Shown here piece by piece: positions 42,342 to 58,816 of a stretch of 64,000 nt of DNA (positions within the stretch are counted from its first letter, which is position 1; each line of letters begins with the position of its first letter). The stretch is from an uncultured Clostridia bacterium. GTDB taxonomy: Bacteria; Bacillota; Clostridia; TANB77; CAG-508. A program made the translations under genes and the position numbers. The notes below the pieces were generated by a model. It did no database searches. It saw nothing but the letters and a program-made list of their open reading frames with translations, and was not told where the DNA came from. The stretch covers positions 11,652 through 75,651 of the forward strand of contig CAKOPZ010000004.1 of NCBI GenBank assembly GCA_934101145.1. Direction: 5' to 3'.

Positions 42342-42965
42342 ATGATAGAAAAAATTTGTGCCTACATTGTAAATCAAATGAGAAAACAAATGCCAGATAT
42401 AGATGATGAAAAAGCAGAAGTTATTACATATGGTATTGAACTAATAATTGGAGAAATTCCAAAAATTTTCTTACTATTTGTACTTAGTTTTATACTTGGA
42501 ATTGGATGGTATACAGTTTTTGCATATGTGGCACTCATACCATATAGAGCATCTTCTGGAGGATTTCACTTAAAAACACATATTGGATGCATAGTTGGAA
42601 GTAGTTTATTTTATTATGGAATAGTATATTTAAGTAAATTTATTACATTAAGTGTATTTCAAAAATATATTCTTATTGGACTAGCTCTTGTATTTGGAAT
42701 AATTATGGTTAGCCTATATGCTCCAGCAGATACAGAAAATATTCCAATAATAAGCAAAAAAGAAAGAAAACGAAAAAAAGTATTATCATATATAACACTT
42801 GTACTTACACTTATAGCTTCAGTATTTATAAAAGATAGTATTATTTCAAACATATTAATATTTGGAGTAATTGTTCAAAGCTTTATGATAAGCAGACTTG
42901 CATATTTACTTACAAATAATAAATATGGATATAAAGAATATCAGCAAAAAGAAAAATTAGCTTAA
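42342..42965 (+). CDS. agrB: AgrB-family autoinducer-processing membrane protease
   Basis: 207-aa polytopic protein with the RASSGGFH motif typical of AgrB. Confidence 0.8.
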   Translation: MIEKICAYIVNQMRKQMPDIDDEKAEVITYGIELIIGEIPKIFLLFVLSFILGIGWYTVFAYVALIPYRASSGGFHLKTHIGCIVGSSLFYYGIVYLSKFITLSVFQKYILIGLALVFGIIMVSLYAPADTENIPIISKKERKRKKVLSYITLVLTLIASVFIKDSIISNILIFGVIVQSFMISRLAYLLTNNKYGYKEYQQKEKLA

Positions 42966-43040
42966 ATAAACATATGATTAATATAACATTGATACGGCCG
43001 GCAATGTTTTATTATATAAACACTAAAGGGGGAATTTTAT

Positions 43041-43160
43041 ATGTTAAAAATGTTAGCTAAAATAGCAGAAAAATATGCAAAGGCAACAAATACAACTTGT
43101 GTTTTATTTAGTATGTTACATCAACCAAAAATGCCTGCATCTTTAATAAAAAAAGACTAA
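43041..43160 (+). CDS. agrD: AgrD-like autoinducing-peptide precursor (39 aa)
   Basis: MLKMLAKIAEKYAKATNTTCVLFSMLHQPKMPASLIKKD has an amphipathic leader, a single Cys and a downstream HQP..P..L tail, as in clostridial AgrD. GGGGGA RBS. It is missing from the ORF track. Confidence 0.65.
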   Translation: MLKMLAKIAEKYAKATNTTCVLFSMLHQPKMPASLIKKD

Positions 43161-43199
43161 TAAAGTGGGATAATAACATTATATAAAAAGATAAATAAT

Positions 43200-43232
43200 A
43201 AACGATTTCTTAAATTATTTAAGAAATCGTTT
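43200..43232. terminator. Bidirectional terminator between the agrD-like and agrC-like genes
   Basis: Perfect 16-nt arms AAACGATTTCTTAAAT / ATTTAAGAAATCGTTT. Confidence 0.7.
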
Positions 43233-43242
43233 ATTTGGGGAA

Positions 43243-44601
43243 TTAATAGTAAATTTCAAATTGTTGTTTAAACATATCAGAAGATTTTGTTGTAAATAAA
43301 TTTAGATTATTATTTCTTTTTAATATTTGTCTTACTTTCCAAAGTCCAAGTCCAGAGTTTGTTTCACTTGACTTGCTAGAAACACCTTTTTCAAAAATCC
43401 TTTCTGTATCAACATCTTTGTTATTATATGTATTTTCTATAATTACTAAAATTCTATGTCTACTATCTTCTTTTCTAAAAGAAACCTTAATAAGTTTGTT
43501 ATCACATTCCTTGGCAGCTTCAATAGCATTATCAAGAAGTATTCCAAGAATTCTTGTAAATTCATATATTTTCATATGTTGTTCAATTTCATTTAAATCT
43601 AAGAAAATATCAAGATTTATTTGTATATTCTGCTCATCTGCATCATAATACTTAGTTGAAAGAATATTATAAATTGCAGGATGATTAATTACTTTTGGAT
43701 TTAGAGAATACAAGTTATTTGTTTTATTGCAATCCTCCAAAAGTTCTTCATAAAATTTTGTTAAACCTTCCATATCATCATTTCTTATATAACCACCAAT
43801 ACCATTTACAATATTATCAAAATCATGTTTAAAAGTTCTAACAGTATCATGAAGAACCTGAAGAGAATGAAGTGTTAGTTTTGTACCTTCTAAATCTCTT
43901 GTTGTCATTTCAAGTTTTGATGATCCAACAATACAATAAATACTAATAGTAAAATATGCAATTAATCCAAGTATATCTATAAAAGTTATAAGTGATGGCA
44001 TAGTATTGCTAAAATATCTAACTAAGTAAAATTGTGAACCAAGAACAAGTGCCATCAGTACTAAATTTGCAATCAAAAGTGTTTTGGCCCTTGTGCTCAT
44101 GTTATCAATAACACCAATATTAATCTTTAAGTATTTAATTATTAATGTAATAAAGTAAATAGTTAAGTAAATACTAAAAGCAGAAATTATTCTATATAAA
44201 GGAACTGTCATAAGATGGTTCATTGTTATATGAAATACGTCAAATGCAACATCAGAACAAGTAAAATCTAATATCGAAGTTAATGCCATAGTAATAACTT
44301 CTGATAAAATACTTTTTAAAATAGTTGTCTTAAAAATAAAATATACCATTACTGGCCATAAAATTATAGTTACAAAAACTGTATATGATGCAGGTACAAT
44401 AAAATTGACTAGACATCCTAAAGAACCATAAACTAATACATAGATTAATTTTCTTATTTTATTTGCTTTTATATTTAAAACTGTAGTAAAAAATTGCATA
44501 CCAATAAACGCTTCTAGATATGAAAGAGGAATAAGTAAAATTTGTACTAAACCCTCATTAGGTGTTGTCAGTAAAGTTAAAATCTTTTGTAAAATATTCA
44601 T
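43243..44601 (-). CDS. AgrC-like sensor histidine kinase (HPK10, GHKL)
   Basis: 6-7 N-terminal TMs, H-box FKHDFDNIV, N/G boxes (LLDNAIEA, GLGLW). Confidence 0.8.
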   Translation of the reverse strand: MNILQKILTLLTTPNEGLVQILLIPLSYLEAFIGMQFFTTVLNIKANKIRKLIYVLVYGSLGCLVNFIVPASYTVFVTIILWPVMVYFIFKTTILKSILSEVITMALTSILDFTCSDVAFDVFHITMNHLMTVPLYRIISAFSIYLTIYFITLIIKYLKINIGVIDNMSTRAKTLLIANLVLMALVLGSQFYLVRYFSNTMPSLITFIDILGLIAYFTISIYCIVGSSKLEMTTRDLEGTKLTLHSLQVLHDTVRTFKHDFDNIVNGIGGYIRNDDMEGLTKFYEELLEDCNKTNNLYSLNPKVINHPAIYNILSTKYYDADEQNIQINLDIFLDLNEIEQHMKIYEFTRILGILLDNAIEAAKECDNKLIKVSFRKEDSRHRILVIIENTYNNKDVDTERIFEKGVSSKSSETNSGLGLWKVRQILKRNNNLNLFTTKSSDMFKQQFEIYY

Positions 44602-45298
44602 TATTAAAAACCTCCTTAAAATTATTTTTATATTTAGGACCTATGTAACATTCGTCATTATTGCTAAAAAATATTGTGTTAGATGAAAAATCTATATTAT
44701 CAATTTTATCCAAATTAACAATATATGACTTATGACATCTGACAAATTGTTTAGGCAATAAAGGTGATATTTTGTTAAAAGAATTATATACTTCATAGGT
44801 TCTTGTATCTGTTGTAAAAACAAGTTTCATGCCGTCTTTTTGAATATACTTTATAGAATTTTCTGGAATTATAGTTTTATTTTTATCAAGTCTTAAATAT
44901 TTTATATTGTTTTCACTAAAAGCATCATCATAGAGTCTTAAAATAGTTTCTTTGAGTCTTTCAAAAGTTAGAGGCTTTGAAATATAATCAAATGTTTTAT
45001 ATTTATATGCTATAAGTCCATATTCCAAATGACCTGTGATAAAAATAATATATATATTTTTATCCTGAGTTCTTATTTTTTCTGCAAGTTTTAAACCAGT
45101 TATATCTGTATTTAAATCAACATCCAAAATTACGACATTTACGGGATGTGTTTCAACATATTTAAGTAAATTGTATGGGTTAGGTGTAGAAAAAACAACC
45201 TGTCCTTCCAAATTTTCTTGAATGAAAATAGAATCTAACATTGCTGAAAGTTTTTTGATGGCGGTAGGGCTATCGTCGCATAACACAAAATTTAACAT
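44558..45298 (-). CDS. LytTR-family response regulator (AgrA-like)
   Basis: Receiver domain (LCDD, ILDVDL) plus a LytTR domain. GGGGGA RBS upstream of ATG 45298 (the track ORF extends to 45406). Overlaps the kinase gene start. Confidence 0.8.
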   Translation of the reverse strand: MLNFVLCDDSPTAIKKLSAMLDSIFIQENLEGQVVFSTPNPYNLLKYVETHPVNVVILDVDLNTDITGLKLAEKIRTQDKNIYIIFITGHLEYGLIAYKYKTFDYISKPLTFERLKETILRLYDDAFSENNIKYLRLDKNKTIIPENSIKYIQKDGMKLVFTTDTRTYEVYNSFNKISPLLPKQFVRCHKSYIVNLDKIDNIDFSSNTIFFSNNDECYIGPKYKNNFKEVFNNEYFTKDFNFTDNT

Positions 45299-45594
45299 AA
45301 AATCCCCCAAACTATTAAAAAATAGCACCGAAACTGGAAATATAGTACGATAAGTAACATTCGAGTTACCTAAAAATTTCCAATTTGTGATAATAATATA
45401 ATCCAATTTTTTTCAGTTGTCAATATTTTTTTTATAAAAGGGAAAACTTGTGTATCCTGTCGAACCGTAAAGAAAAATGAAAAACGAAAAGGAATTAAAT
45501 GGAAAAACAATAAGACTAAAAAATCTTTAGTTATTTTTTTATAACTTTCTTCATAGGATTAAATAAAAAGTAATATGGAAAGGTAAAATTTATT

Positions 45595-46026
45595 ATGGAG
45601 AAAAAAAGATTAATAATAGTATGTATTTGCATAATTGCAATTTTAATTTTATTTGTAATATTAACTAATATGAATAGTGCTAGAAGTATGCAAACAAGTG
45701 CTTCTACAGTAAGTAATAAAAAAATTGGTTGGGGAATAAAAAGAAACAATAATCATACTCAGCCAGAGGTTGGAGCAGAAAATAAAAGGATAATAGAGAA
45801 ATATAATGGAATATGTATGGGAAATAGCGAAAAACCATATATATACTTAACATTTGATAGCGGGTATGAAGCAGGATATACAAAAAAGATATTGGAAGTT
45901 TTAAAAAGAAACCAGGTTCCTGCAACGTTTTTTGTAACAGCACATTATGTTAATAGTCATCCAGAATTAATAAAACAAATGATAGATGAAGGACATATAA
46001 TAGGAAACCAATTTCCACTTAGCTAG
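45595..46026 (+). pseudogene. pdaA: 5' part of an interrupted PdaA-type polysaccharide (MurNAc) deacetylase gene
   Basis: TM anchor, WGIKRNNNHTQP, YLTFDSGYEAGYT, TFFVT and DEGHIIGN, then 6 unrelated codons and a stop. Authentic coding ends near 46010. Confidence 0.8.
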
Positions 46027-46034
46027 ATGTACCA
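46023..46034. repeat. Left terminal inverted repeat of the element
   Basis: CTAGATGTACCA, the exact reverse complement of 56901-56912. Confidence 0.8.
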
Positions 46035-46268
46035 AATTTAGAAAATGATGAAAGCTAGATAAATAGCCTTTTTACAAAGATTTTTAATAACGAATTGAAT
46101 TATCAATTTGTTATTTTTTTGCCTAATTTCATTATTTGAAATCATATATACAAAAGAAATATGCTTAAAAATTGTCAAAATCAATTTAAAACAATTTTAC
46201 AACATAATTCGACAAATTATTAGCATAAATAAAAAACAACCCAAATTTTAAATATGGAGGAAAATAAA

Positions 46269-46580
46269 ATGCAAGAAAAAAATTCAATAAAAGTATTAGA
46301 AAATTTAGGAATAGGAATGTTTTGCAATGTGGGACTACCACTAACAAATTCAATGTCGAGTGATGTAATATCTATTTATTTAGAAAAAGATAAAGACGGA
46401 AGATACAATTTTTATGATGGAGGAGGATCAATTGGAACTTTTAAAATGTCAAAAGACTTTATTATAAAAAGAGATATAAAAATATCAAGAGTAAATAACG
46501 AAGAAAAAACAAAACATTTATATACAATATTAAAAAAGCAAGAAATAAGGGACAAGCATAATTTAAGAGATAGCAGATAA
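46269..46580 (+). CDS. Unknown element-borne protein (~103 aa)
   Basis: GGAGG lies 8 nt upstream of ATG 46269, with a hairpin terminator after the stop. Confidence 0.45.
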   Translation: MQEKNSIKVLENLGIGMFCNVGLPLTNSMSSDVISIYLEKDKDGRYNFYDGGGSIGTFKMSKDFIIKRDIKISRVNNEEKTKHLYTILKKQEIRDKHNLRDSR

Positions 46581-46678
46581 ACGAGTTGTAGAAATGCAAT
46601 TCGTTTTTTGCTTTTACATATCAGTGAAATAACATAGTCATATTTTATGACTAAAATTCAAAGAAAGGAGGTAGCCAA

Positions 46679-47455
46679 ATGACAAAAACAAAAGTTATAG
46701 CTATTGCGAATCAAAAAGGAGGTGTAGGAAAAACTACAACAGCTTTAAATTTAGGCGTAGGACTTGTGAATAATGGTAAAAAAGTATTGCTAATTGATGC
46801 AGATCCACAGGGAGATTTGACGACTTGTCTAGGATATAGAAATCCAGATGAGCTTGATAAAACAATAGGAACTGTACTTGATAAGGTAATAAAAGATAAT
46901 TCATTAGAAGAAAACGAGGCAATATTACATCATAATGAGGGAGTAGATTTAGTTCCATCTAATATAGACTTAGAAACAATAGAAGTAGGACTTGTCAATA
47001 TTATGAGTAGAGAACATGTTTTAAAAAGCTATATTGATCGAGTAAAAAGCAAATATGATTATGTGATTATAGATTGCAGACCTTCATTAAGTATGATTAC
47101 ACTTAATGCACTAGCTTGTAGTGATAGTGTAATTATTCCAGTGCAAGCTCATTATTTATCAGCGAAAGGAATGACACAACTAATTCAAACTATAAATAAA
47201 GTACGCAATAGAATAAATCCTAATCTAAAGATTGATGGAGTTTTAATTACTCTTGCAGATATGCAAACAAAGGTAGGAAAGACAACATTGCAAACACTAA
47301 AAAATAATTATGGAAGTAAAATAAAAATTTATGACACAATTATTCCACAAGGAGTAAAGGCAGTAGAGGGGACAATGGCAGGAAAAAGTTTATTTACTTA
47401 TGATAAAGATAGTAAGCCAGCTATTGCTTACAATAATTTTTGTAAGTATGAGTAA
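46679..47455 (+). CDS. ParA/Soj-family partition ATPase with 3' end replaced by IS sequence
   Basis: Deviant Walker A NQKGGVGKTTT. The native C-terminus is lost after ..PAIAYNNF. Confidence 0.8.
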   Translation: MTKTKVIAIANQKGGVGKTTTALNLGVGLVNNGKKVLLIDADPQGDLTTCLGYRNPDELDKTIGTVLDKVIKDNSLEENEAILHHNEGVDLVPSNIDLETIEVGLVNIMSREHVLKSYIDRVKSKYDYVIIDCRPSLSMITLNALACSDSVIIPVQAHYLSAKGMTQLIQTINKVRNRINPNLKIDGVLITLADMQTKVGKTTLQTLKNNYGSKIKIYDTIIPQGVKAVEGTMAGKSLFTYDKDSKPAIAYNNFCKYE

Positions 47456-47957
47456 ATATTCGAGTGAATTTAAATTAGAGGTTGTAAAATATTATTTAGA
47501 AAATAATGTTGGATATCAAGCAGCAGCCGACCACTTTGGTGTAGCATATTCACCCGTTATTAGATGGGTTAGAAAATACAAAGAAAATGGATATGTAGGA
47601 TTAATGAAAAATCAGAGAGCAAGTTATAGTGGAAATTTTAAACAAAATGTAGTAGAATACATGCATGAGAACCATTTATCATGTCAAGAAACAGCATTTC
47701 ATTTTAATTTAGCAGGAGATTATGTAGTTAGTAAATGGGAACGTATATATTATGAGGAAGGACCACAAGGTTTGTATATAGAACGACGTGGAAGGTCGAA
47801 AAATATGAGTTCAAAACCAAGAAAGAAAATTTCAAACAAGGAAGTTAAAGAAGATTTAATTGCTGAAAATCAAAGGCTTCGAATGGAGAATGAATACTTA
47901 AAAAAATTAAATGCCTTAGTTCAGGAAAGAATCAAGCGAGAGAACAAGAAAAAGTAA
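47448..47957 (+). CDS. IS3-family transposase OrfA (HTH)
   Basis: MSKYSSEFKLEVVKYYLEN.., leucine-zipper-like C-terminus, GAAAAAG slippery-like motif at 47948-47954. Confidence 0.8.
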   Translation: MSKYSSEFKLEVVKYYLENNVGYQAAADHFGVAYSPVIRWVRKYKENGYVGLMKNQRASYSGNFKQNVVEYMHENHLSCQETAFHFNLAGDYVVSKWERIYYEEGPQGLYIERRGRSKNMSSKPRKKISNKEVKEDLIAENQRLRMENEYLKKLNALVQERIKRENKKK

Positions 47958-47989
47958 TTGTTGTCGATGAATTAAGGCACAAATATAGC

Positions 47990-48811
47990 TTGAGAGAATT
48001 ATTAAAATTAGCAGAAATACCAAGAAGTACATTTTATTATAATCTAAAAAATATGAGAAAAGAAGATAAATATAAAGTAGAAAAAGACGAAATTTTATCT
48101 ATATTTAATGAAAATAAAGGACGTTATGGTTATAGAAGAATAACATTAGAAATGAGAAATCGTGGCTATATAATAAACCATAAAACAGTTGCAAGACTAA
48201 TGCAAATAATGGGATTACAAAGCATTCAAAGACCAAAAAGAAGATATAATTCATATCAAGGAATAATAGGAAAAATAGCAGATAATTTATTAAAAAGAGA
48301 TTTTAAGGCAGATAAGCCAAACCAAAAGTGGGCTACAGATGTAACGGAATTTAGAGTTAATAATGATAAACTTTATTTATCACCAATAGTAGATTTGTTT
48401 AACGGTGAAGTAATAAGCTTTAATTTATCTCAACATCCAGTATTTAATCAAGTAGTAGATATGTTAGAAAAAGCATTTAATAAAATACCAGATAATACCA
48501 ACCTAATATTACATTCTAATCAAGGATGGCAGTATCAAATGAAACAATATCAATATTTGTTAGAACAAAAGGGTATCAGGCAAAGTATGTCAAGAAAAGG
48601 AAATTGTTTAGATAATGCATGTGCAGAGAATTTTTTTGGAATATTAAAATCAGAGCTCTATTATATAAAAGAAAAAGAGTATAAAAATATAGAAGAATTA
48701 GAAAATGATATAATTGAATATATAGAATATTATAATAACAGAAGAATTAAGAGCAAACTAAAAGGAATGTCCCCTGTTCAATACAGAGAACATTCCGAGT
48801 TAGTAGCCTAA
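47990..48811 (+). CDS. IS3-family transposase OrfB (DDE/rve integrase core)
   Basis: WATDVTEF.., HSNQGWQY.. and DNACAENFF are DDE motifs. The frame stays open back to ~47930 in the -1 frame relative to orfA, so an OrfAB fusion is likely. Confidence 0.8.
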   Translation: MRELLKLAEIPRSTFYYNLKNMRKEDKYKVEKDEILSIFNENKGRYGYRRITLEMRNRGYIINHKTVARLMQIMGLQSIQRPKRRYNSYQGIIGKIADNLLKRDFKADKPNQKWATDVTEFRVNNDKLYLSPIVDLFNGEVISFNLSQHPVFNQVVDMLEKAFNKIPDNTNLILHSNQGWQYQMKQYQYLLEQKGIRQSMSRKGNCLDNACAENFFGILKSELYYIKEKEYKNIEELENDIIEYIEYYNNRRIKSKLKGMSPVQYREHSELVA

Positions 48812-48901
48812 TTTATACTGTCCAACTTTTTGGGTTCAGTACAAAGAAGGGATTGAACTTAATAAAAAAGTATAGAAAATTAATAAATAGGAGGAATTAA
48901 A

Positions 48902-49906
48902 ATGGCAATTTTATTACCAGGAGGAGCAGGTTATATAGGAAGTCACACAGCAGTAGAATTATTGAATGCAGGAAAGGAAATTATAATAATAGATAATTTT
49001 TCAAATAGTAAACCAGAGGTTTTGGATAAAATAAGAAAAATAACAGGTAAGGACTTTAAATTTTATGAAATAGACTATTTAGATAGAGAAAAATTAGAAG
49101 AGGTTTTTGAAGAAAATGACATTGAAGCAGTATTAAACTTTGCAGGATATAAAGCAGTTGGAGAATCTGTAGAAAAACCACTAGAATATTATCACAATAA
49201 TATTTCAGGATGTCTGGTTTTATTACAAACAATGAAAAAATATGGAGTTAAAAAATTCATATTCAGCTCATCTGCAACAGTATATGGTGAACCAGAATAT
49301 ATACCAATTACAGAAGAATGCAAAACTGGAGGCACAACAAATCCATATGGTACAACAAAACTATTTATTGAACAAATACTAAAAGACTTATATACATCTG
49401 ATAATACATGGGATATATGCATATTGAGATATTTTAATCCTGTAGGAGCACATGAAAGTGGATTAATAGGAGAAGAACCACAAGGAATTCCAAACAATTT
49501 AATGCCATATGTAGCAAGGGTAGCTGCTGGACAATTAAAAGAGTTGTCTGTATTTGGCGATGATTATGACACACCTGACGGAACTGGTGTAAGAGACTAT
49601 ATACATGTCGTAGATTTAGCAAGAGGACATGTAGCAGCATTAAAGAAATTAGATAGAGAAGAAGAAGGATTATATATATATAATTTAGGAACAGGAACGG
49701 GATATAGTGTTTTAGATATGGTAAAAGGATTTGAGAAGGCAACAGGTAAAAAAGTACCATATACAATAGCACCAAGAAGAGCTGGAGATATTGCTACATG
49801 CTATGCAAATCCTAAAAAAGCAAGAGAAGAATTAGGATGGGAAGCTACAAGAAATCTAGATGATATGTATAAGGATTCTTGGAATTATATAGAAAAAAAT
49901 AGCTAA
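48902..49906 (+). CDS. galE: UDP-glucose 4-epimerase
   Basis: GGAGYIGSH Rossmann motif and an SSSATVYG..Y..TK catalytic triad region. Confidence 0.88.
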   Translation: MAILLPGGAGYIGSHTAVELLNAGKEIIIIDNFSNSKPEVLDKIRKITGKDFKFYEIDYLDREKLEEVFEENDIEAVLNFAGYKAVGESVEKPLEYYHNNISGCLVLLQTMKKYGVKKFIFSSSATVYGEPEYIPITEECKTGGTTNPYGTTKLFIEQILKDLYTSDNTWDICILRYFNPVGAHESGLIGEEPQGIPNNLMPYVARVAAGQLKELSVFGDDYDTPDGTGVRDYIHVVDLARGHVAALKKLDREEEGLYIYNLGTGTGYSVLDMVKGFEKATGKKVPYTIAPRRAGDIATCYANPKKAREELGWEATRNLDDMYKDSWNYIEKNS

Positions 49907-49913
49907 TATTATT

Positions 49914-50852
49914 GTGACAGAATTAATAATATTATTTATAATTACTGGAGGAACATTTTTATATGTCAAAAATAAATTAGGAAAAATACAAAGAATAGAC
50001 CTAAATGAAAGCGATTTAAATGTATCTGCACAAACAGATAAGAAATTAGCCGATTATAGAAATATAGCTATATTTGGTATTGATTCAAGAGCGAATACTT
50101 ATGATAAAGGAAATAGAAGCGATTGTATAATGATTGCAAGTATCAATGATAAAACAAAAGAAGTAAAGTTGGTATCTATATATAGAGATACACTTGTGCA
50201 AATAGAAGACCATGGGCTTGATAAAATAACTCATGCATATTCTTATGGAGAAGCACCTCTTGCAATAAAAACTTTAAATACAAATTTTGACTTAAACATC
50301 AAAGAGTTTGTAACAGTAAATTTTGATGCGGTAAAGGATATAATTGACAGCATAGGTGGTATATCAATGAATGTAACTACTGAAGAAGTACCACATATAT
50401 CTGGAATAACGGCAGCTGGAACATACAATTTAACAGGAGAACAGGCTTTAGCATATGCAAGAATTAGATATGCTACGGGAGGAGATTATAAAAGAACAGA
50501 GAGAATGAGAGACGTATTAACAGCTGTTGTAAACAAAGTGAAGACATTTAATATAAGTCAATTGAATTCATTTATAGATAAAGTATTACCAAGGGTTTAT
50601 ACTAATATATCTGAAAATGACATATTTAGTATGATACCAAATGCGACGAGTTTTAAAATAACAAAAAGCATAGGGTGGCCATATGAAACAAAAGGAATAA
50701 CACTTGATAGATGGTATGGAGTTCCGATTACATTGGAAAGCAATGTGACAAAATTACATCAAGAAATATTTGATGAGAAAGATTATATACCTTCAGACAC
50801 AGTAAAAGAAATAAGCAATGATATAGTGAAAAAGATGGGATATATTAATTAA
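49914..50852 (+). CDS. LytR-CpsA-Psr (LCP) family phosphotransferase
   Basis: N-terminal TM, NIAIFGIDSR..RSDCIMIASIN.. and FVTVNFDAVKDIIDSIGG. Confidence 0.8.
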   Translation: MTELIILFIITGGTFLYVKNKLGKIQRIDLNESDLNVSAQTDKKLADYRNIAIFGIDSRANTYDKGNRSDCIMIASINDKTKEVKLVSIYRDTLVQIEDHGLDKITHAYSYGEAPLAIKTLNTNFDLNIKEFVTVNFDAVKDIIDSIGGISMNVTTEEVPHISGITAAGTYNLTGEQALAYARIRYATGGDYKRTERMRDVLTAVVNKVKTFNISQLNSFIDKVLPRVYTNISENDIFSMIPNATSFKITKSIGWPYETKGITLDRWYGVPITLESNVTKLHQEIFDEKDYIPSDTVKEISNDIVKKMGYIN

Positions 50853-50903
50853 ACAAGATAAGAATTTCTAAGAGGTGTATGAACGGTAAGGGGAAGTTTT
50901 AAA

Positions 50904-51554
50904 ATGCTGTATATAAAAATAAAAAGAATATTAGATATTATATTATCTGCTATGTTATTAATAGTTTTTGCTATTCCAATGGCAATTGTCGCAATTTGCA
51001 TAAAATTGGAAGATGGAGGACCAGTTATATATAAGTCAAATAGAGTGGGAAAAAATTTAAAAGAATTTAATACATATAAATTTAGATCAATGAAAACAAA
51101 GCGAGAAGAATTGCATAGTACTTTATCGCATGAACAAATGGTAACAAATATAGGAAGATTCATAAGAAAAACCTCATTAGACGAATTACCACAATTAGTT
51201 AATGTATTAAAAGGTGAAATGAGTTTTATAGGACCACGACCATGGATACCAGAATATTATAAATGGTTTACAGATGAACAAAAAAGAAGAATTGAAGTAT
51301 TACCAGGTATTTCAGGATTAGCACAAGTTAGAGGAAGAAATGGAATTAATATATTAAAGAAAATAGAATATGATATTGAATATGTTGATAATATTAGTTT
51401 TAAACAAGATGTTATAATAGCATTTGAAACAATTATAACTGTATTTTCTAAAACAAATGCTGAAATAACGGAAAATGGAATAAAAGAAGAAATTAATGAA
51501 TTGAAAACACAAAGAATTAGTTTGGAAGAAAACATATATAAAGAAGTTATATAA
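50904..51554 (+). CDS. Undecaprenyl-phosphate sugar phosphotransferase (bacterial sugar transferase family)
   Basis: DELPQLVNVLKGEMSFIGPRP motif, at small WbaP C-domain-type length. Confidence 0.8.
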   Translation: MLYIKIKRILDIILSAMLLIVFAIPMAIVAICIKLEDGGPVIYKSNRVGKNLKEFNTYKFRSMKTKREELHSTLSHEQMVTNIGRFIRKTSLDELPQLVNVLKGEMSFIGPRPWIPEYYKWFTDEQKRRIEVLPGISGLAQVRGRNGINILKKIEYDIEYVDNISFKQDVIIAFETIITVFSKTNAEITENGIKEEINELKTQRISLEENIYKEVI

Positions 51555-51575
51555 AATAAATAAAGGGAGAAGGAA

Positions 51576-52829
51576 ATGAAAAAGGTATTGTTTGCAGCAA
51601 CAGTTGATTCTCATATAAAACAATTTCATTTGCTATATTTACAATGGTTTAAAGAACAAGGTTATGAAGTACATGTTGCAACTAATGGTGACGAAGCAAT
51701 ACCATACTGTGACATAAAACATAGGATTCCTTTTGAAAGAAATCCTATCAAAGTTAACAATTTAAAGGCAATAAAAAAATTAAAGAAAATTATAGAAAAT
51801 GAAAAAATTGAATTTATAGATTATGAGCATGAAAATTTTTATAAAAGGCAAATTTCAAGGTTAGAAAGAATAGGAAAGGCAGATGTATATCACAAATCGG
51901 CAATTTATACTTTAGGTATATGCGAAACTACAAGAAGTAATTTTAATAATATTCTTAATTTGGAAACAGATAGAACCAATATAGACAGTTTACAAAGTGC
52001 ATGGCAAACAGGGACAAGCAAAAGAGTAACAAGAATGGCATTGAATTTATGGAATAGTGATAATATGTATGAAGATAGAAAAGCTGAAAAGGAAGATAGA
52101 GTATCTAAGAATTATTGTGTTAGTGAATTGTTTTGTGATGGGTATGATAGATATTTCATGGAAGCAATAAAATTACGATACCCAGAGAATTTTAGAGAAT
52201 ATCAAAATAGTAAAATTATAACTTTAAATAATGATAATAAAGACAACAGTAAATTGTATGGGATTTATATAAGAATAGGTTATTGTCAGAATGAGTTTTC
52301 AGCAATTTTAGAATTAGAGGAAAAGAAAGAGCAAATTTTAAAATACTGTAAAGACAATGGGTATAATGTTAATCATATATATTGTGATATTGGATTTTCT
52401 GGTGCATTAGAAAATAGAATTTCACTAGATAAATTAGTAGATGATATAAATAGTGGAAAATTAGAGGGAGTTATAGCAGAAAGTTTATCTTCAATTATAA
52501 GAGATCCATCACTTGTGAAAACAAAAATATTTTTACAGAGCATAAAAGGACAAATAATTTCAATGCAAGATGGTGTAATTAAAGGCAAAAATAGTAAAAC
52601 AACTGAAAACGAAATGGACACGACTAAAAAAGAAAAAGTTATAAATGAAAGTGATAGAACACAAGAAAATCAATTTAAAGAAATGTTTAATAAACAACAA
52701 AACAAAACTATACCCAAAACGAAAAATGTTATTGTACATAACAATTTAAAATGGAGACCAGTAAGCGAGGAACAAAGAAAAGGACGAATTGAGATGAGAA
52801 TGAAATCAAAGAAAAATTTAGAAAGATAA
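51576..52829 (+). CDS. Chimeric ORF: glycosyltransferase N-terminal fragment fused to a resolvase-like domain lacking the catalytic Ser
   Basis: Residues 1-~80 resemble a GT4 N-terminus (MKKVLFAATVDSHIKQF..). Residues ~225-335 resemble a serine-recombinase catalytic domain, but YIRIGYCQNE replaces Y.R.S...Q. Confidence 0.5.
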   Translation: MKKVLFAATVDSHIKQFHLLYLQWFKEQGYEVHVATNGDEAIPYCDIKHRIPFERNPIKVNNLKAIKKLKKIIENEKIEFIDYEHENFYKRQISRLERIGKADVYHKSAIYTLGICETTRSNFNNILNLETDRTNIDSLQSAWQTGTSKRVTRMALNLWNSDNMYEDRKAEKEDRVSKNYCVSELFCDGYDRYFMEAIKLRYPENFREYQNSKIITLNNDNKDNSKLYGIYIRIGYCQNEFSAILELEEKKEQILKYCKDNGYNVNHIYCDIGFSGALENRISLDKLVDDINSGKLEGVIAESLSSIIRDPSLVKTKIFLQSIKGQIISMQDGVIKGKNSKTTENEMDTTKKEKVINESDRTQENQFKEMFNKQQNKTIPKTKNVIVHNNLKWRPVSEEQRKGRIEMRMKSKKNLER

Positions 52830-52856
52830 ACAAGTCAAAAATGGCTTGTTTTTTTG
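52828..52856 (+). terminator. Intrinsic terminator
   Basis: AAACAAG-loop-CTTGTTT followed by a T-run. Confidence 0.55.
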
Positions 52857-53349
52857 TTAGGAGGGAACAAATTTGAAAACAAATATAGGAAATATAAATA
52901 TGGAAGTAAAAGAGGCAATAGCCTATTACATTTTAGGGTATGAAAAATATCATACTGAGATAAAAGACATTAAAAAGAAACATTGGATAATAATATTAAA
53001 ATTTATATTAGAAATGGTTAGAGATGATGTAGATACACAAGAAGTTATATTACGAAATAAAAACTACTAGATACAATTCTTTTTTCGTGGAAACTAACTC
53101 CAGATGATTTTTTTGCTTATGCAACTTGTATTTTTTATGTATTAACTAACCGAGAAAAAGAAATAACACCAAAAAAATAGTAACAGAATTTTTATCAGAA
53201 GTATATTCACACCACCCAAGAAAAACTTTAAAAGAAGCTAATTTTATACTTGATGAATTTTTTCCAGAAGAATAATTTTATAAAAATAAAGCAATTATTC
53301 ATAAATTTATCATTACCTAAATACCTTTTAATATGAAAGTAAGGAGGTA

Positions 53350-53478
53350 ATGTTGGAAGAAAATAAAGAAGATAGCAAAGTAAAAGTTATCTATGGAAAA
53401 GAAAATTTACGAGAAATAATAACCAATTTGTTAGAAGAAAAATTTAACGAAATTATAGAACAATGTGAAGATCAGTAA
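53350..53478 (+). CDS. Small acidic protein (~42 aa) upstream of the recombinases
   Basis: AAGGAGG precedes ATG 53350 / TTG 53353. Sequence ..KVKVIYGKENLREIITNLLEEKFNEIIEQCEDQ. Function unknown. Confidence 0.3.
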   Translation: MLEENKEDSKVKVIYGKENLREIITNLLEEKFNEIIEQCEDQ

Positions 53479-53567
53479 ATAATATTAAATTTGCACATTT
53501 TACTTCAAATAATTTAAAAGATAAAATTAAATCGTAAAAAGGTTATTTATTCTGGAGAGGAGGTAAG

Positions 53568-55223
53568 ATGAAAAGAATAAATAATTGTGGCAATATAAAT
53601 TATAGAAAAGATAGAACAGTCAAGTATTTGCGTCTTTCAAGAGATGACGGAGATGATAGAGAAAGTGAAAGTATAGAAAATCAAAGAGATATAATAGATA
53701 ATTTTATAAAAAATAGTGATGATTTAGAAGATGTAGGAGAATATATCGATGATGGATATACAGGAACTAATTTTAATAGACCAGATTTTAAACGAATGAT
53801 ACAAGACATTGAAGATGGAAAAATAGACTGCATTATTACAAAAGATTTATCAAGATTTGGAAGAGATCACATAGATACAGGATATTATCTTGAAAGGTAT
53901 TTACCAACAAAAGCTATAAGATATATTGCAATAGGCGATAATGTTGATACCAATAATCCATCTGGATTGCAATTTTTAACTTTTAAATTAAGTTTTAATG
54001 ACTATTATGCACAAGATATATCCAATAAAATAAAAAGTGTAAAGCAAAGAAAAATAGAAAAGGGAGAATTTCAAGGAAATATTGCTCCTTATGGTTACAA
54101 AAAAGATAGTTTAATAAAAAATCATCTAATACCAGATGAAGAATCAGCAAAAGTAGTTGTAGATATATTTGATATGTATGTTAATAAAGGAATGTCAACA
54201 ACACAAATAGCAGATAAATTAAATGAAAATGAAATTTTACCACCTGCAATATATTTAAAGATTCCGACTATTATGAAAGGTAAGAAAGATATATCAGAAT
54301 ACAAATGGCTATATAGTCAAATATCAGAAATGTTACAAAATCAAATATATATAGGAAATGTAGTAGGTAGAAAATATCAAAAAATTAGTCATAAGGTTGA
54401 TAAAGTTAGAAAAACAAAAAAAGAAGAATACATCATTGTACCTAATAAACATAGAGCAATTATTTCAATAGATATATGGAATAAAGCACAGGAAAAAATA
54501 GAAATGTATAAAAAATTTAGAACAAACAAATCTGAGGAATACACACATCCTTTAAAAGAGTTAGTACATTGTGCTGAGTGTGGAGGAAAAGCAATATATA
54601 GACATAGAGTGGCAAAAAGAAAAAACGGCAATATGTGGGAAAATAATAGTTTTATATGTTCTAATAAAAATTCAAAAAGAAATGATTGCGAATGTAAACC
54701 TATAAAATTAGAAGAACTAGAAAAAAAAGTAATTAGTGCAATAAAAGAAGAAATACAAAAATTATCTTATTCAGATGATGAATTACAAGAAATATATGAC
54801 AACGCTGAGCAAAAAATCAATACAAAAATCAATTTTTTCAAAAAACAATTAAAAATTTATGAATGCAAGCTAAAAGAAAAAAATGAAACAATAAAACAAG
54901 TCTATAAAGATAAAACTGAAAATGTAATAACAACTGAAGATTTTAATATTATTTATGAGGACTTATTAAAAGAGAAAAAACTAATTTTACAGCAGATACA
55001 ACAATTAGAAACAAAGATAGAAGAAACCAAAAAAAGTAGTAATAGTCTTAATTATAAACAAATAAAAGAGGTAGCAGAAGAAATATTATCTATTAAAAAT
55101 CCTAGTAGAGAACTATATTCAAAATTGATTCAGAAAATAGAATTTGATAGTCAAAAAAATGTAATTATAACCTTCAGATTTGGACAGATAGAAATAAAAG
55201 AAGGACTAAAGGAGGCAATATAA
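53568..55223 (+). CDS. Large serine recombinase 1
   Basis: Resolvase catalytic domain (YLRLSRDDGD..ENQ, DDGYTGTNFNRP, DLSRFGRD), recombinase domain, Cys-rich zinc ribbon (CAECGG..C..C) and coiled coil. Confidence 0.9.
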   Translation: MKRINNCGNINYRKDRTVKYLRLSRDDGDDRESESIENQRDIIDNFIKNSDDLEDVGEYIDDGYTGTNFNRPDFKRMIQDIEDGKIDCIITKDLSRFGRDHIDTGYYLERYLPTKAIRYIAIGDNVDTNNPSGLQFLTFKLSFNDYYAQDISNKIKSVKQRKIEKGEFQGNIAPYGYKKDSLIKNHLIPDEESAKVVVDIFDMYVNKGMSTTQIADKLNENEILPPAIYLKIPTIMKGKKDISEYKWLYSQISEMLQNQIYIGNVVGRKYQKISHKVDKVRKTKKEEYIIVPNKHRAIISIDIWNKAQEKIEMYKKFRTNKSEEYTHPLKELVHCAECGGKAIYRHRVAKRKNGNMWENNSFICSNKNSKRNDCECKPIKLEELEKKVISAIKEEIQKLSYSDDELQEIYDNAEQKINTKINFFKKQLKIYECKLKEKNETIKQVYKDKTENVITTEDFNIIYEDLLKEKKLILQQIQQLETKIEETKKSSNSLNYKQIKEVAEEILSIKNPSRELYSKLIQKIEFDSQKNVIITFRFGQIEIKEGLKEAI

Positions 55224-56849
55224 ATGCGAATATATAGGGCAGTAAAATATTTGAGATTATCAGAACAAGATGGAGATAAGCAAGAAAGTGAAAGCATAGA
55301 AAATCAAAGGGATATAATAGATAATTTTATAAATAATAATGATGATTTAAAAGCAGTAGGAGAATATATTGATGATGGCTATACAGGAGGAAATTTCGAT
55401 AGACCAGACTTTAAGCGAATGATACAAGATATTGAAGATGGAAAAATAGATTGCATTATCACAAAAGACTTATCAAGATTTGGGAGAGATCATATAGATA
55501 CAGGTTACTATCTTGAAAGGTACTTACCATCAAAAGCTATAAGATATATTGCAATAGGTGATGGTGTAGATACTATAAATGCAAGAGGATTGCAGTTTTT
55601 ATCGTTTAAGTTAAGCTATAATGATTATTACATACAAGATATTTCTAAAAAAATAAAAAGTGTAAAAAAGAAGAAAATGGAAAATGGGGAATATCAAGCA
55701 GGAATTGCTCCTTATGGTTATAAAAAAGATGAAAATATAAAAAATCATTTAGTTATTGATGAAAATGTATATAAAGTTGTGCAAGAAATATTTGATATGT
55801 ACGGAAATAAAGGAATGTCAACTATAAAAATTGCTGATGAATTGAATAGAAGGAATATTGTACCACCTGCTGTCTATATGAATATGCCTTGTACAAAAAG
55901 AAAATGCAAAAATCCATCTGGAGAGTATGTTTGGCTACGAACAACAATAGGAAATATGTTAAAAAATCAAACTTATTTAGGGTATGTTGTAAGTGGTAAA
56001 AGGGAACAAATAAGTCCTAAAATAAAAAAAGGAAGGCAGAAGAAAAAAGAAGAATTTATTGTAATAAAGAATATGCATGATCCTATTATAGATGAAGAAC
56101 TATGGAAAAAAGTTCAAGCTAGATTTAATTCATTTAATACAGATAATAAGAAAAAATATAATTATATTCTAAAAGGTATGGTATATTGTGGAGAATGTGG
56201 AAATGAAGCAACATTTATGCATTCTATAAGCAAAAATAAAAGTGGCAAAGTATATTGGGAGGGAAACTATGCAATATGTAAAAAGAGAAATGATTATATA
56301 AGGTTATGCGAGAATAAAATTCTTGGAGAACACATAATATTAAGAGAACTTAAAAAAGTAATACAAAATGAGTTAAATAAAATAGACATTACTTCCAAAG
56401 AAATAAAAGAAACTTATAAAAAAGCAAAAGTAAAAAGTGATACAAGAGAAAAAAAGAATAAGTTGATTATTGAAAGTAAGAATAAGGAACTCAAAGAAAT
56501 TGAAAATAGATTTTCAGAACTTTACAAAAGAAAATTGAAAAATGAAATTTCAATAGATGACTTCAATAAAATATACGAAGGAATGAAAAATAAAAGAAAA
56601 TCTATAAATCAAGAAATTAAGGAACTTGAAAATGAAATAACTAATGCACAAAGTAAAAAACTAGAAGATAAGGAGTATAAAGAAATAAGAAAAATAGCAA
56701 AAAAATTCTTAAAAATGGAAGAGCCAGATCGAGAAACAATAGAGGCATTAGTAAGGAAAATTACATTTGATAAAAATAAAAATATTACAATAGAACTAAC
56801 TTTTTCAAATCCTTATGAGAAAGTAATATATAAGAAAGATATAGCATAA
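55224..56849 (+). CDS. Large serine recombinase 2 (tandem paralog)
   Basis: Same architecture as recombinase 1. The ATG directly abuts the upstream TAA, with AAGGAGG 8 nt upstream. The N-terminal ~130 aa are near-identical to recombinase 1, and the C-terminal DNA-binding half is diverged. Confidence 0.9.
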   Translation: MRIYRAVKYLRLSEQDGDKQESESIENQRDIIDNFINNNDDLKAVGEYIDDGYTGGNFDRPDFKRMIQDIEDGKIDCIITKDLSRFGRDHIDTGYYLERYLPSKAIRYIAIGDGVDTINARGLQFLSFKLSYNDYYIQDISKKIKSVKKKKMENGEYQAGIAPYGYKKDENIKNHLVIDENVYKVVQEIFDMYGNKGMSTIKIADELNRRNIVPPAVYMNMPCTKRKCKNPSGEYVWLRTTIGNMLKNQTYLGYVVSGKREQISPKIKKGRQKKKEEFIVIKNMHDPIIDEELWKKVQARFNSFNTDNKKKYNYILKGMVYCGECGNEATFMHSISKNKSGKVYWEGNYAICKKRNDYIRLCENKILGEHIILRELKKVIQNELNKIDITSKEIKETYKKAKVKSDTREKKNKLIIESKNKELKEIENRFSELYKRKLKNEISIDDFNKIYEGMKNKRKSINQEIKELENEITNAQSKKLEDKEYKEIRKIAKKFLKMEEPDRETIEALVRKITFDKNKNITIELTFSNPYEKVIYKKDIA

Positions 56850-56900
56850 TAAATTAGAAAGTAGTTATTGATGTTAACTACATAATTTTAGATGAAAAAG

Positions 56901-56912
56901 TGGTACATCTAG
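56901..56912. repeat. Right terminal inverted repeat of the element
   Basis: TGGTACATCTAG, the reverse complement of 46023-46034. Confidence 0.8.
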
Positions 56913-56921
56913 TTAGGTTAA

Positions 56922-57317
56922 AACCATACAGCTAATCATAAATCAATGCCAGAAATAAGTAATGAACAAATAAAAGAAGAAGTAATGAATTTACACAGCA
57001 GTTTGTATGAAAAATTTGGATATGAAATGCAATATATAAGACCACCAAAAGGAGAATATAGTGAAAGAACAGTTGCATATACAAATACACTTGGCTATAC
57101 AACCGTAATGTGGTCATTTGCATATGATGATTGGGATGAATCAAAACAGGGAAGAGAAAAATATGGAAAAAAGAAAATATTAGACAATTTGCATAATGGA
57201 GAAGTAATGCTACTTCATGCAACATCAAAGGATAATAGCAATATATTAGATGAATGTATAAAAGAAATTAAAGCACAGGGATATGAATTTAGAGCAATTG
57301 ATAAATTTGAAAAATAA
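56922..57317 (+). pseudogene. pdaA: 3' part of the interrupted PdaA-type deacetylase gene
   Basis: The frame opens at 56922 as NHTANHKSMPEIS.. (the track ORF starts at internal Met 56946). Contains RPPKGEYS, LGYTTVMWS, LLHATS and QGYEF. Confidence 0.8.
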
Positions 57318-57326
57318 AAAAGGATT

Positions 57327-57635
57327 GTGATTGATTTGAAAAAAAGAAAATCTACACCAAGTAGACTTGAAAGAATTCTGAGTCTACCAGATGAAATCAG
57401 TTCAAATAGACCAAAGATAACAATAGTGGGATTTGAACAAGTTTTTATAGAAAATTACAAAGGAATACTTGAATATCAGGATTATTTTGTAAGATTAAAT
57501 ACATACATTGGTATCATAAATATTAATGGATTTAATTTAAAACTTGAAGAAATGACAACAGATGATATTTTAGTAACAGGCCAAATAGATGGAATTGACT
57601 TTGAAAGCATTGAAAACGAGGAGGAGAAAATTTGA
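57327..57635 (+). CDS. yqfC: YabP/YqfC-family sporulation protein
   Basis: ~100-aa protein with ..ITIVGFEQVFIENYKGILEYQD..V.L.. directly upstream of and overlapping yqfD. Confidence 0.7.
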   Translation: MIDLKKRKSTPSRLERILSLPDEISSNRPKITIVGFEQVFIENYKGILEYQDYFVRLNTYIGIININGFNLKLEEMTTDDILVTGQIDGIDFESIENEEEKI

Positions 57636-58816
57636 ACTTAGATGTACTATTAAGTTATATATATGGCTATGTTGATATAGAAGTAGAAGGATATTATATA
57701 GAAAGATTTATAAACATATGTGCAAGTAAAGGAATATATTTATGGAAAATAAATAGGAGTAAGTCAACAATACTGTGTGCTAGAATAAAAAGAGAAGACT
57801 TTAAAAAATTAAGAAGTGTTTGTAAAAAAACACAATGTAGATTAAAAATTAAAAATAAAAAAGGAATATCATTTAAGTTAAATCAATATAGAAAGAGGAA
57901 GGTATTTGTGCTTTTTCTTTTTATTATATTGTTTACAATTATTGCGCTTTCAAATTTTATATGGAATATAGAAATAATTGGAAACAGTAAAATAAATTCT
58001 AAGGATATTTTAAGTATCGTAAAAGAGAGTGGACTTGATATAGGAAAAATGAGACATGCAATAAACACAAAACAGGTAATAAATAATTTAAGACTTAAAA
58101 GGGACGATATTGCTTGGGTGGGAATTGATATAAAAGGAACAAATGCCATCATTAAAATAGAGGAAGCTGACGAAAAGCCAGAAATAATAAATGAAGATGA
58201 ATACTGTAATATTGTTGCAAAAAAATCAGGTATGATATTGAAAGTAAATGCTGTAAATGGAACATCACTTGTAAAGGAAGGTGATATTGTAAAAGAAGGA
58301 GATAACCTTATTGCAGGATGGATGGAAGGTAAGTATACTAGCAAGCGCTATGTTCATGCACAAGGAGAAATAAAAGCAAAAGTTTGGTATACAAGCAAAC
58401 AAAGAATTGATTTAATAGAAAATAATAAAGAAGAAACTGGCCAAGTAGAAAATAAGTATTGTATAAATATAAATAATTTTAAAATAAATTTATATAAAGG
58501 GCTTTCAAAATTCCAAAATTATGATACAATAGAAGAGACAAAAAAATTGAAGTTATTTTCTAATTTTTATATCCCAATAGAAATTAACAAAATAACTAAT
58601 AAAGAGTACAAAAATATTCAAGTTGTTCATGATGTTAATGAAGCAAAAGAAATAGCAAAAAATATGGCAATGAAGGAACTTGATGAAAAAATAGAAGATA
58701 AAAATAGTATTTTAGATAAGCAGATTACAACACATGAGGATAGTTCTTATGTGGAAGTAGAAGTAACATATGAAGTACAAGAAAACATTGGGACAAAAGA
58801 AAAAATAGTCTTTTAG
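57632..58816 (+). CDS. yqfD: Sporulation protein YqfD
   Basis: GYVDIEVEGYYIERFINICASKGIYLW N-terminus, a central TM, and typical length. Confidence 0.8.
   Translation: MNLDVLLSYIYGYVDIEVEGYYIERFINICASKGIYLWKINRSKSTILCARIKREDFKKLRSVCKKTQCRLKIKNKKGISFKLNQYRKRKVFVLFLFIILFTIIALSNFIWNIEIIGNSKINSKDILSIVKESGLDIGKMRHAINTKQVINNLRLKRDDIAWVGIDIKGTNAIIKIEEADEKPEIINEDEYCNIVAKKSGMILKVNAVNGTSLVKEGDIVKEGDNLIAGWMEGKYTSKRYVHAQGEIKAKVWYTSKQRIDLIENNKEETGQVENKYCININNFKINLYKGLSKFQNYDTIEETKKLKLFSNFYIPIEINKITNKEYKNIQVVHDVNEAKEIAKNMAMKELDEKIEDKNSILDKQITTHEDSSYVEVEVTYEVQENIGTKEKIVF

Follow-up and report, generated by a model that had tools for sequence, protein, structure and literature searches.

We have analyzed a window of 64 kb (64,000 nucleotides of contig CAKOPZ010000004.1, from an uncultured Clostridia bacterium) in which pdaA, a gene for a predicted spore-cortex deacetylase, is precisely split by an element that carries large serine recombinases (LSRs). 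The gene is interrupted at 46010/56927 and the insert spans 46011-56926 (10,916 bp), with all of its genes on the + strand. The 5' part of pdaA (45595..46010, + strand) comprises codons 1-138 plus the two first bases of codon 139 and encodes an N-terminal membrane anchor and the TFD.GYE motif, with the protein ending in ...DEGHIIGN. In the integrated state the corresponding open reading frame (ORF, 45595..46026) reads ...IKQMIDEGHIIGN and runs on through QFPLS to a stop at 46026. A preliminary description of this DNA had placed this end correctly, the junk codons being five and not six as it had counted. The 3' part (56927..57317, + strand) supplies the last base of codon 139, codons 140-268 and the stop, together with the H-T-x-x-H, RPP.G and LLH motifs, and has neither a start codon nor a signal sequence of its own. 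The frame holding ORF 56946-57317 is already open at 56922, as NHTANHKSMPEIS, in agreement with the same description.

The hexamer AAACCA is present twice, at 46005-46010 and 56921-56926. Joining 45595-46010 and 56927-57317 at this repeat, as had been proposed, gave in silico one 807-nt ORF of 268 aa containing ...DEGHIIGNHTANHK..., and neither half carried stops or frameshifts. The joined protein scored 297.0 bits on the NCBIfam model TIGR02884 (spore_pdaA), one bit short of the curated equivalog cut-off of 298. The next best model was PdaB (167 bits vs a cut-off of 237), and the PgdA and NodB models scored far below TIGR02884. By these scores PdaA is clearly the best-fitting family, in line with the type of deacetylase first suggested, the enzymatic role being a predicted one. 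Uninterrupted homologues of 267-281 aa were collinear with the joined protein over 97-100% of its length, with identities of up to 89-96%. One metagenome contig, L001, carries an uninterrupted gene and is 97.5% identical to the joined sequence over 1,262 nt, with no gap across the join. At this point L001 reads exactly as the left side of attL followed by the right side of attR, identical to the predicted join, and its upstream genes are the same as in the window (agrB-agrD-kinase-LytTR). The split of pdaA is more than chance, because this near-conspecific contig carries the exact empty site.

Immediately downstream, as the preliminary description had reported, lie yqfC (57327-57635, + strand) and yqfD (57632-58816, + strand). 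The pair begins 9 nt past the pdaA stop and therefore probably forms one operon with pdaA. While the element sits integrated, pdaA consists of two inactive pieces and is cut from its promoter along with yqfC-yqfD. The synteny of intact genes, as well as promoters and attB conservation (below), was studied in a metagenome scan that yielded intact genes only, because full-length matches outrank half matches. The yqfC-yqfD pair followed pdaA within 400 bp (mostly within about 100 bp) in 33 of the 66 testable metagenome loci, mostly those of closer relatives; in Clostridium perfringens, judging by locus tag, pdaA and yqfC-yqfD are far apart. As to an intact paralogue that might supply the function, which had been raised earlier, no second pdaA was found within the 64-kb window, the span covered by the search. 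The DNA directly upstream of pdaA holds, in divergent orientation, a complete agr-type quorum-sensing locus (42342-45406) made up of AgrB, a small AgrD-like ORF, a kinase of the AgrC type and a LytTR regulator. This locus is conserved in several related hosts (L001, L017, L103 and L110).

The two junctions gave a matched pair of attachment sites. The attL site (45986..46033, + strand, GGAAACCAATTTCCAC) consists of a host half-site (45986-46008), the dinucleotide CA (46009-46010) and an element half-site (46011-46033, ATTTCCACTTAGCTAGATGTACC), and attR (56902..56949, + strand, GGTTAAAACCATACAGC) of an element half-site (56902-56924, GGTACATCTAGTTAGGTTAAAAC), CA (56925-56926) and a host half-site (56927-56949). 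The rebuilt attP, GGTACATCTAGTTAGGTTAAAAC-CA-ATTTCCACTTAGCTAGATGTACC (continuous form GGTTAAAACCAATTTCCAC), has two 23-nt half-sites around the central CA, with their outer 11 nt forming a perfect inverted repeat, and the element ends make up a 28-nt imperfect terminal inverted repeat. In sister elements of the L103 type, described below, attP contains a 15-bp perfect inverted repeat around AAATCATACA. The attB sequence is ATAGGAAACCATACAGC, also given as GGAAACCATACAGC. The crossover was assigned to the CA because the preceding base is host-derived in attL (T in contig L021, C in the window) and is an element-derived C in attR. The left element arm of the window adjoins the pdaA of another host in contigs L021/L022, and since it is found there at 83% identity, the segment 46011-46281 is taken as the genuine left end of the family. 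The element is integrated through attP x attB recombination at the central CA. The predicted attachment site is the DNA that encodes the NodB metal-binding motif of pdaA (...GHIIGN/HTxNH..., the slash marking the junction). The attB region is among the three most conserved 40-nt stretches of pdaA DNA (0.87 vs a gene mean of 0.78), and such conservation at the DNA level makes it a good integrase target.

The right end of the insert is occupied by two large serine recombinase genes, as first described, LSR1 (53568..55223, + strand, 551 aa) and its paralogue LSR2 (55224..56849, + strand, 541 aa), the latter adjoining attR. Both proteins contain all three expected domains (Resolvase, PF00239; Recombinase, PF07508; Zn_ribbon_recom, PF13408) and the YLRLS motif, and their lengths fit the 450-700 aa or so that are usual for an LSR. 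They are 53% identical overall, with near-identical catalytic domains and diverged DNA-binding parts. The LSR1 equivalent of the sister locus L108 is broken into two ORFs, and LSR2 is 100% identical to protein P0121, present in other hosts. In structure databases, the best PDB match of LSR2 was TnpX (catalytic domain), and the nearest full-length solved homologue was SprA (YokA) of SPbeta, with an E value of 1e-20 over residues 6-485. From its sequence and position, LSR2 is probably the pdaA-specific integrase/excisase.

A micro-ORF of 42 aa (MLEENKEDSKVKVIYGKENLREI..., 53350..53478, + strand) with a strong ribosome-binding site precedes LSR1. A micro-ORF of 39-42 aa with the shared motif YGKxNLxEI was found directly upstream of the LSR gene in all of the two-LSR and complete single-LSR sisters inspected, and this conservation extends down to 54% LSR identity. 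Neither this nor the other small ORFs of the element had matches in PHROGs or Pfam. The micro-ORF product may act as a recombination directionality factor or as an accessory factor. A spacer of 89 nt (53479-53567), which separates the micro-ORF from LSR1, is nearly invariant in four element variants in which the LSR genes differ by up to 20%, which hints at a regulatory DNA or RNA element.

We have inspected the relatives of LSR2 in contigs, at 100, 98, 86, 67, 55 and 54% identity and in eight or more host contexts (loci L007/L012, L013, L014, L015/L016, L008, L108, L110-L112 and L103-L107). All of them sit immediately upstream of a pdaA 3' fragment that starts at the same codon. Insertion at unrelated sites in relatives had been considered in the preliminary description; every inspected relative was at pdaA. 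The yqfC-yqfD pair comes next after the fragment in all of these loci but L008, where about 6 kb of unrelated genes lie between, and farther downstream the host synteny varies. In two independent samples (L015 12414-13593 and L016 7697-8876), yqfD is present as two ORFs of 174 and 177 aa with a 120-bp gap, which may reflect decay of a sporulation gene or an insertion.

The same site was recovered from the other side of the junction, by homology search with the 143-aa N-terminal fragment. The search gave 1,511 matches, a number that is not readable as a frequency, and only the 119 inspected sequences were counted, as a minimum of lineages; the proteins listed evidently favour those of similar length, because the full-length P0001 and P0003 were missing among them. 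Within these limits, 115 of the 119 end at this codon or a few bases from it. Most of these truncated PdaA proteins stop directly after GHI[IV]GN and continue into element-derived tails (HTPKCLMSGNDIETKC, HTPISLMSGN.., QFPLS(QMYQI), HIPLTLMPLI, HF and QSPHALMEL), three of the 115 represent a frameshift allele, and the remaining four of the 119 continue as intact gene fragments. The frameshift allele was also seen in contig L113 (10305-10345), where a 1-nt insertion in the left half-site of attB (ATTATA-C-GGAAAT, the C being inserted; ATTATACGGAAATCATAC) shifts the pdaA frame, and in protein clusters P0274, P0291 and P0312. Possible explanations are a scar left by excision, a mutation that confers immunity to integration, or simply a pseudogene.

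Complete elements were found on single contigs in two sister types, of 6,894 bp (L103 type) and 4,530 bp (L110 type), and in both of them joining restores a full-length, in-frame pdaA. A single LSR is encoded by the L103 type, and the sequence of this LSR is indexed in 231 blocks of the collection. Contig L021 holds a stripped version of the window element, with attL, 270 bp, the micro-ORF and LSR1 up to the contig end. The cargo of the sisters includes helix-turn-helix (HTH) regulators, a radical-SAM protein, a Spo0A_C-like regulator, a small sigma-like protein, MazF and a DUF6075-Resolvase protein. In the larger sisters (L012 3868-5564, L008 1761-3579 and L108 5110-6663), a Spo0A_C-like response regulator, a small sigma-70 region-4 protein and a MazF/PemK toxin are encoded, regulators that could interfere with the sporulation control of the host. 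In L017 (10468-15765), two pdaA-targeting elements stand in tandem; the first is about 4.7 kb long with its LSR split into two ORFs, and a hybrid junction, TTAGGAAATCA...GTATGTACC, precedes the left end of the second. Judging from the loci inspected, the window element belongs to a large LSR family that is horizontally mobile and targets one exact pdaA site in many Clostridia. The preliminary description had missed both the family and the rearranged state of the window copy.

The sigma-E consensus known from B. subtilis has ATA at -35 and CATA...T at -10. This consensus, along with published consensus descriptions, was the basis of a strict pattern, (T/G)(A/C)ATA-N14-17-CATAnnnT, for the analysis of the upstream regions. 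In the window, a promoter-like box upstream of pdaA (45530..45559, + strand) reads GTTAT-N17-CATAGGAT, with a -10 of the mother-cell type (CATAnnnT), and both the alignment and the listing of upstream regions indicated that it is conserved in relatives. There, a box gTAATAa-N13-16-CATAaaATT recurs about 25-45 nt before the pdaA start codon. The strict pattern was present in 12 of 30 non-redundant pdaA upstream regions (shuffle mean 0.8, maximum 4), and its background in the window was 0.117 per kb per strand. The same 30 regions gave no match to the sigma-K and sigma-F patterns and three to that of sigma-G.

A second box lies upstream of the micro-ORF (53278..53307, + strand; TTATA-N17-CATAAATT), one mismatch away from the strict pattern. 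The strict pattern itself was found 30-45 nt upstream of the micro-ORF in L103 (TAATA-N16-CATAAAAT), L108 (TAATA-N17-CATAAATT) and L110 (GAATA-N15-CATAAGAT); over 7.4 kb of L110 the strict pattern occurs just twice, upstream of pdaA and upstream of the micro-ORF. A terminator scan found no terminator-like site between LSR2 and the 3' part of pdaA, and read-through into yqfC-yqfD would therefore be possible in the integrated state.

Starting from the split gene, its matched attachment sites and empty site, the site specificity and mobility of the family, its non-phage nature (see below) and the intact recombination genes, we favour, with a probability of roughly one half, a family of pdaA-intervening elements that would work like skin or gin, with excision in the mother cell rebuilding pdaA-yqfC-yqfD. 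Mother-cell excision is plausible because pdaA is fused to yqfC-yqfD and a sigma-E-like motif stands upstream of both pdaA and the micro-ORF. For the compartment and timing of excision, the role of the micro-ORF and the LSR that acts, we infer the following course. After asymmetric division, the mother-cell sigma-E RNA polymerase would transcribe the micro-ORF-LSR operon, and LSR2, possibly with LSR1 and with the micro-ORF product as directionality factor, would recombine attL with attR. The element would exit as a circle and the pdaA-yqfC-yqfD operon would be restored behind its own sigma-E-type promoter, so that export of the rebuilt PdaA to the cortex space could follow. In the forespore, the chromosome would retain the element, which would in this way be inherited, and horizontal spread between species would come on top of this vertical cycle.

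A number of observations weigh against programmed excision in the mother cell. The pdaA gene of B. subtilis is sigma-G-dependent. That of C. difficile (CD1430) is also sigma-G-dependent and belongs to the forespore (PMC3789822), and the intervening elements proven so far are all in mother-cell genes (PMC4191935, PMC5595907, PMC10747680). Both window boxes miss the strict -35, only the -10 of the pdaA box being canonical, and the promoter assignment is one of consensus motifs in DNA of 26% GC. In the variant of L015/L008, the micro-ORF-LSR genes are preceded instead by a sigma-A-like TGGTATAAAT (TGnTATAAAT). Should the micro-ORF be co-transcribed with the LSR at all times, integration free of a directionality factor would be hard to account for. 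The IS3 genes and rearranged cargo of the window copy are signs of decay. The 99-100% identity of the recombinase module between hosts whose flanks differ by 20-35% implies that the insertions are recent, and the intact halves of pdaA hence say nothing about selection. Excision products were not seen, and no attP junction was found in IMG/VR or the fetched loci, a negative that is uninformative on excision.

Forespore-only expression had been named in the preliminary description as an outcome contrary to its proposal. The sigma-G dependence of the C. difficile gene goes in that direction, and the sigma-E-like motif in 12 of the 30 upstream regions and the linkage to yqfC-yqfD, which are sigma-E-dependent in C. 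difficile (PMC3789822), in the other. The objection is softened, although not removed, because pdaA is in closer relatives usually fused to yqfC-yqfD and the sigma-E-like motif is enriched. The same data bear on a cycle coupled to the forespore or to germination, in which pdaA would stay under sigma-G control, the element would be excised in the forespore and kept as a circle in the spore, and it would re-integrate at outgrowth or disappear from a fraction of the spores. In addition to the control of the C. difficile gene, the sigma-G-like pattern in three of the 30 regions and a ParA-like gene on the window copy would fit such a cycle. So would the fact that LSRs perform integration on their own when the directionality factor is absent. 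Considering that enrichment of the sigma-G type falls far behind that of the sigma-E-type motif, that pdaA is fused to mother-cell genes, that the minimal elements have no replication gene and that the cycle has no precedent, we regard it as highly improbable.

The remaining genes of the window element are cargo. At the left end, an ORF of 108 aa (46254..46580, + strand) has no assigned function and had no Pfam, informative PHROG or exact-protein look-up match; its homologue, at about 71% nucleotide identity over this region, stands at the left end of the second element in L017. A terminator-like hairpin follows it (46579-46606). We have also considered promoter capture, by which the pdaA promoter would drive this ORF and so trigger excision. 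This was ruled out by a hairpin and T-run lying between the two at about 46080-46115 (an A/T-rich hairpin read from the sequence, which the terminator scan did not flag), and by the absence of the ORF from the minimal element of L021. Next come a ParA/Soj-like ATPase gene (AAA_31, CbiA; 46679..47455, + strand), the 3' end of which overlaps orfA of an IS3-family transposase (47400..48811, + strand; orfA with HTH_28, 47400-47957; orfB with rve, 47990-48811). The IS3 genes are a secondary insertion inside the element. Pfam assigned the following + strand genes to an NAD-dependent epimerase/dehydratase (48902-49906), a LytR-CpsA-Psr protein (49914-50852) and a Bac_transf sugar transferase (50904-51554). 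This surface-polysaccharide cargo (48902..51554) is found in none of the sister elements. A chimeric ORF (51576..52829, + strand) fuses about 65 codons of a glycosyltransferase-4 N-terminus in frame to DUF6075 and a partial Resolvase catalytic domain. The sisters are homologous from 51770 onwards, a position within this ORF, and this breakpoint marks where the polysaccharide cargo replaced the regulator/toxin/sigma-like cargo of the sisters.

The element is non-phage. By Pfam, there were no phage structural, packaging or lysis genes among its ORFs, and the only PHROGs match of the ORFs tested was to an integrase family, on the partial resolvase domain of the chimeric ORF. No pdaA fragments were found in IMG/VR in scans with PdaA and the PdaA alignment, and the nearest phage LSRs were 34% identical or less. 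No relaxase, coupling protein or type IV secretion genes were present in the window element or in the complete 4.5-kb and 6.9-kb sisters, which is the extent of this negative, the L012/L015 elements running past the fetched 10 kb. The GC content of the element is the same as that of its flanks. In a phage collection, small records of 5-8 kb from human faeces, labelled "Bacteriophage sp.", contain up to three LSR-like genes at about 30-34% identity. Three of them (MT837953.1, MT837243.1 and MT837168.1, unannotated, 5.9-7.5 kb) each have three LSR-like stretches, about 31-34% identical to LSR2, and might represent related circular elements that consist of recombinase genes only.

As read from its sequence, the window copy is a rearranged derivative with an IS3 insertion and swapped cargo, in which the attachment sites, the micro-ORF and both LSRs are intact. 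It might be a dead remnant, damaged by IS3 and cargo replacement and incapable of further excision, in a genome where pdaA has become a fixed pseudogene. The IS3 genes overlapping the end of parA, the chimeric ORF as the product of an illegitimate or homologous replacement at 51770, and the two boxes lacking the strict -35 would be compatible with this. Against it, sister copies have exactly the same two att half-sites, no truncation affects LSR1, LSR2 or the micro-ORF, LSR2 is 100% identical to copies in other hosts, the rearrangements are confined to cargo outside the minimal module of L021, and the pdaA halves contain no stops or frameshifts. We therefore consider a dead copy unlikely.

The mobility of the family was most evident from the comparison with locus L007. 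Window and L007 share 99-100% identity over the stretch that begins at 51770 and extends to the right end, and identity falls to 65-80% once the host DNA starts; left of 51770 the two elements are unrelated. Because the module is near-identical and the flanks are diverged, it must have moved recently between species into the same site. A between-host test of selection on the split halves was discarded as uninformative, the module being far younger than the divergence of the hosts. Five samples (L103-L107) carry the same element with an identical LSR, and the N-terminal half of their pdaA differs by at most one synonymous change; the C-terminal half falls into two groups, with 18-21 synonymous and 3-5 non-synonymous codon differences. 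This pattern suggests a recombination boundary at the element and not selection after insertion. In L106, 262 bp of the left end of the element are missing.

These data would also suit a plain site-specific mobile element that uses the conserved pdaA motif as landing site and knocks out the gene, with sporadic or transfer-linked excision, the loss being tolerated through a paralogue, lower dependence on spores or slower germination. The recent horizontal spread of the module speaks for this account, as do the coexistence of occupied and empty alleles within about 97.5% identity, the variable and mosaic cargo, and the tandem elements. An integrase would favour the highly conserved attB stretch whatever the host biology, pdaA is a forespore gene in model species, and one variant has a sigma-A-like box; the split yqfD (L015/L016) and the frameshifted pdaA (L113) indicate that some hosts may be losing sporulation functions. 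It explains less well why the sigma-E-like box before the micro-ORF-LSR genes is kept in three diverged families and resembles the promoter of pdaA itself. The occurrence of the same 6.9-kb element of one species in 231 blocks of the collection would be odd for a costly knockout that severs yqfC-yqfD from their promoter, and the LSR elements previously studied in sporulation genes are all developmentally excised. On balance, we hold a plain mobile element to be the main rival reading, possible if less probable than programmed excision.

The favoured reading, programmed excision from pdaA in the mother cell, can be set beside known systems. TnpX of Tn4451 and TndX of Tn5397 also move non-phage clostridial elements by means of an LSR. 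Their targets are loose GA-containing sites in many loci, in contrast to the present LSR family, which was at one site, in pdaA, in every inspected locus. The recombinase of the B. subtilis skin element is sigma-E-dependent. As in skin, which interrupts sigK (SpoIVCA/Skr in B. subtilis, CD1231/CD1234 in C. difficile; PMC5025042), the LSR is placed at the end of the element near the attachment site and a sporulation gene is interrupted. The sporulation-specific, mother-cell expression of the B. subtilis recombinase (PMC5595907) is the arrangement proposed here, and the directionality factor of skin is a small protein, as the micro-ORF product would be. Unlike the pdaA element, which has no phage genes, skin is prophage-derived and lies in a sigma factor gene, and in C. 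difficile its recombinase is constitutive, with only the directionality factor under sporulation control. SPbeta in spsM (SprA/SprB; PMC4191935, PMC5499854) shares the attL x attR reconstitution of a sporulation gene in frame, and its SprA is the full-length homologue of LSR2 named above; it differs in being a 134-kb active phage with a 16-bp core in a late mother-cell gene.

The intervening elements described so far target sigK, spsM, spoVFB, spoVR, gerE and yabG, with skin, SPbeta, vfbin, vrin and yin as precedents (PMC4191935, PMC5595907, PMC10747680). Nearest to the present case is gin (GirC/GirX; PMC5595907), which interrupts gerE of Bacillus cereus ATCC 10987, is non-phage and encodes several LSRs. 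Both gin and the pdaA element are non-prophage and split a sporulation gene in frame, with several serine recombinase genes, two of them in one operon, a short shared core and flanking inverted repeats; the small accessory protein that gin requires beside its recombinase (PMC5595907) may have its counterpart in the micro-ORF product. Gin is a 28.6-kb element of Bacillus in the gene of a sigma-K-dependent regulator, with excision demonstrated experimentally (PMC5595907), whereas the pdaA elements are known from sequence, occupy a cortex enzyme gene in uncultured Clostridia and measure 4.5-11 kb or more, with a minimal form of one LSR and a 39-42-aa ORF. The view of the preliminary description that no intervening element had been described in pdaA agreed with the searchable literature, which held no paper linking pdaA to an intervening element or a serine recombinase. 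The kind of element is already known from sigK, spsM and others, and what sets the pdaA-intervening element apart is the gene that it targets, its compact form and its wide occurrence in gut Clostridia.

The interruption of pdaA might even act as a heritable, reversible germination switch in gut Clostridia, which we deem quite improbable. Excision would occur in a fraction of the sporangia, or in the forespore with re-integration at outgrowth, and within a single strain some spores would contain muramic delta-lactam and others would lack it, giving a fast-germinating and a super-dormant type. Circles freed at mother-cell lysis would carry the near-identical module between species.

For the annotation of metagenome-assembled genomes, a split pdaA should not be scored as lost sporulation or germination capacity. 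With a 48-bp attP containing perfect inverted repeats, a conserved coding attB, one LSR and a candidate directionality factor of 39-42 aa, the elements are also compact units for a genome-engineering trial. If mother-cell excision is the correct reading, pdaA would have moved to the mother-cell programme in this lineage, and programmed excision in sporulation would extend to a cortex-modification gene and, beyond the few cultured strains in which it is known, to a wide range of uncultured gut Clostridia.

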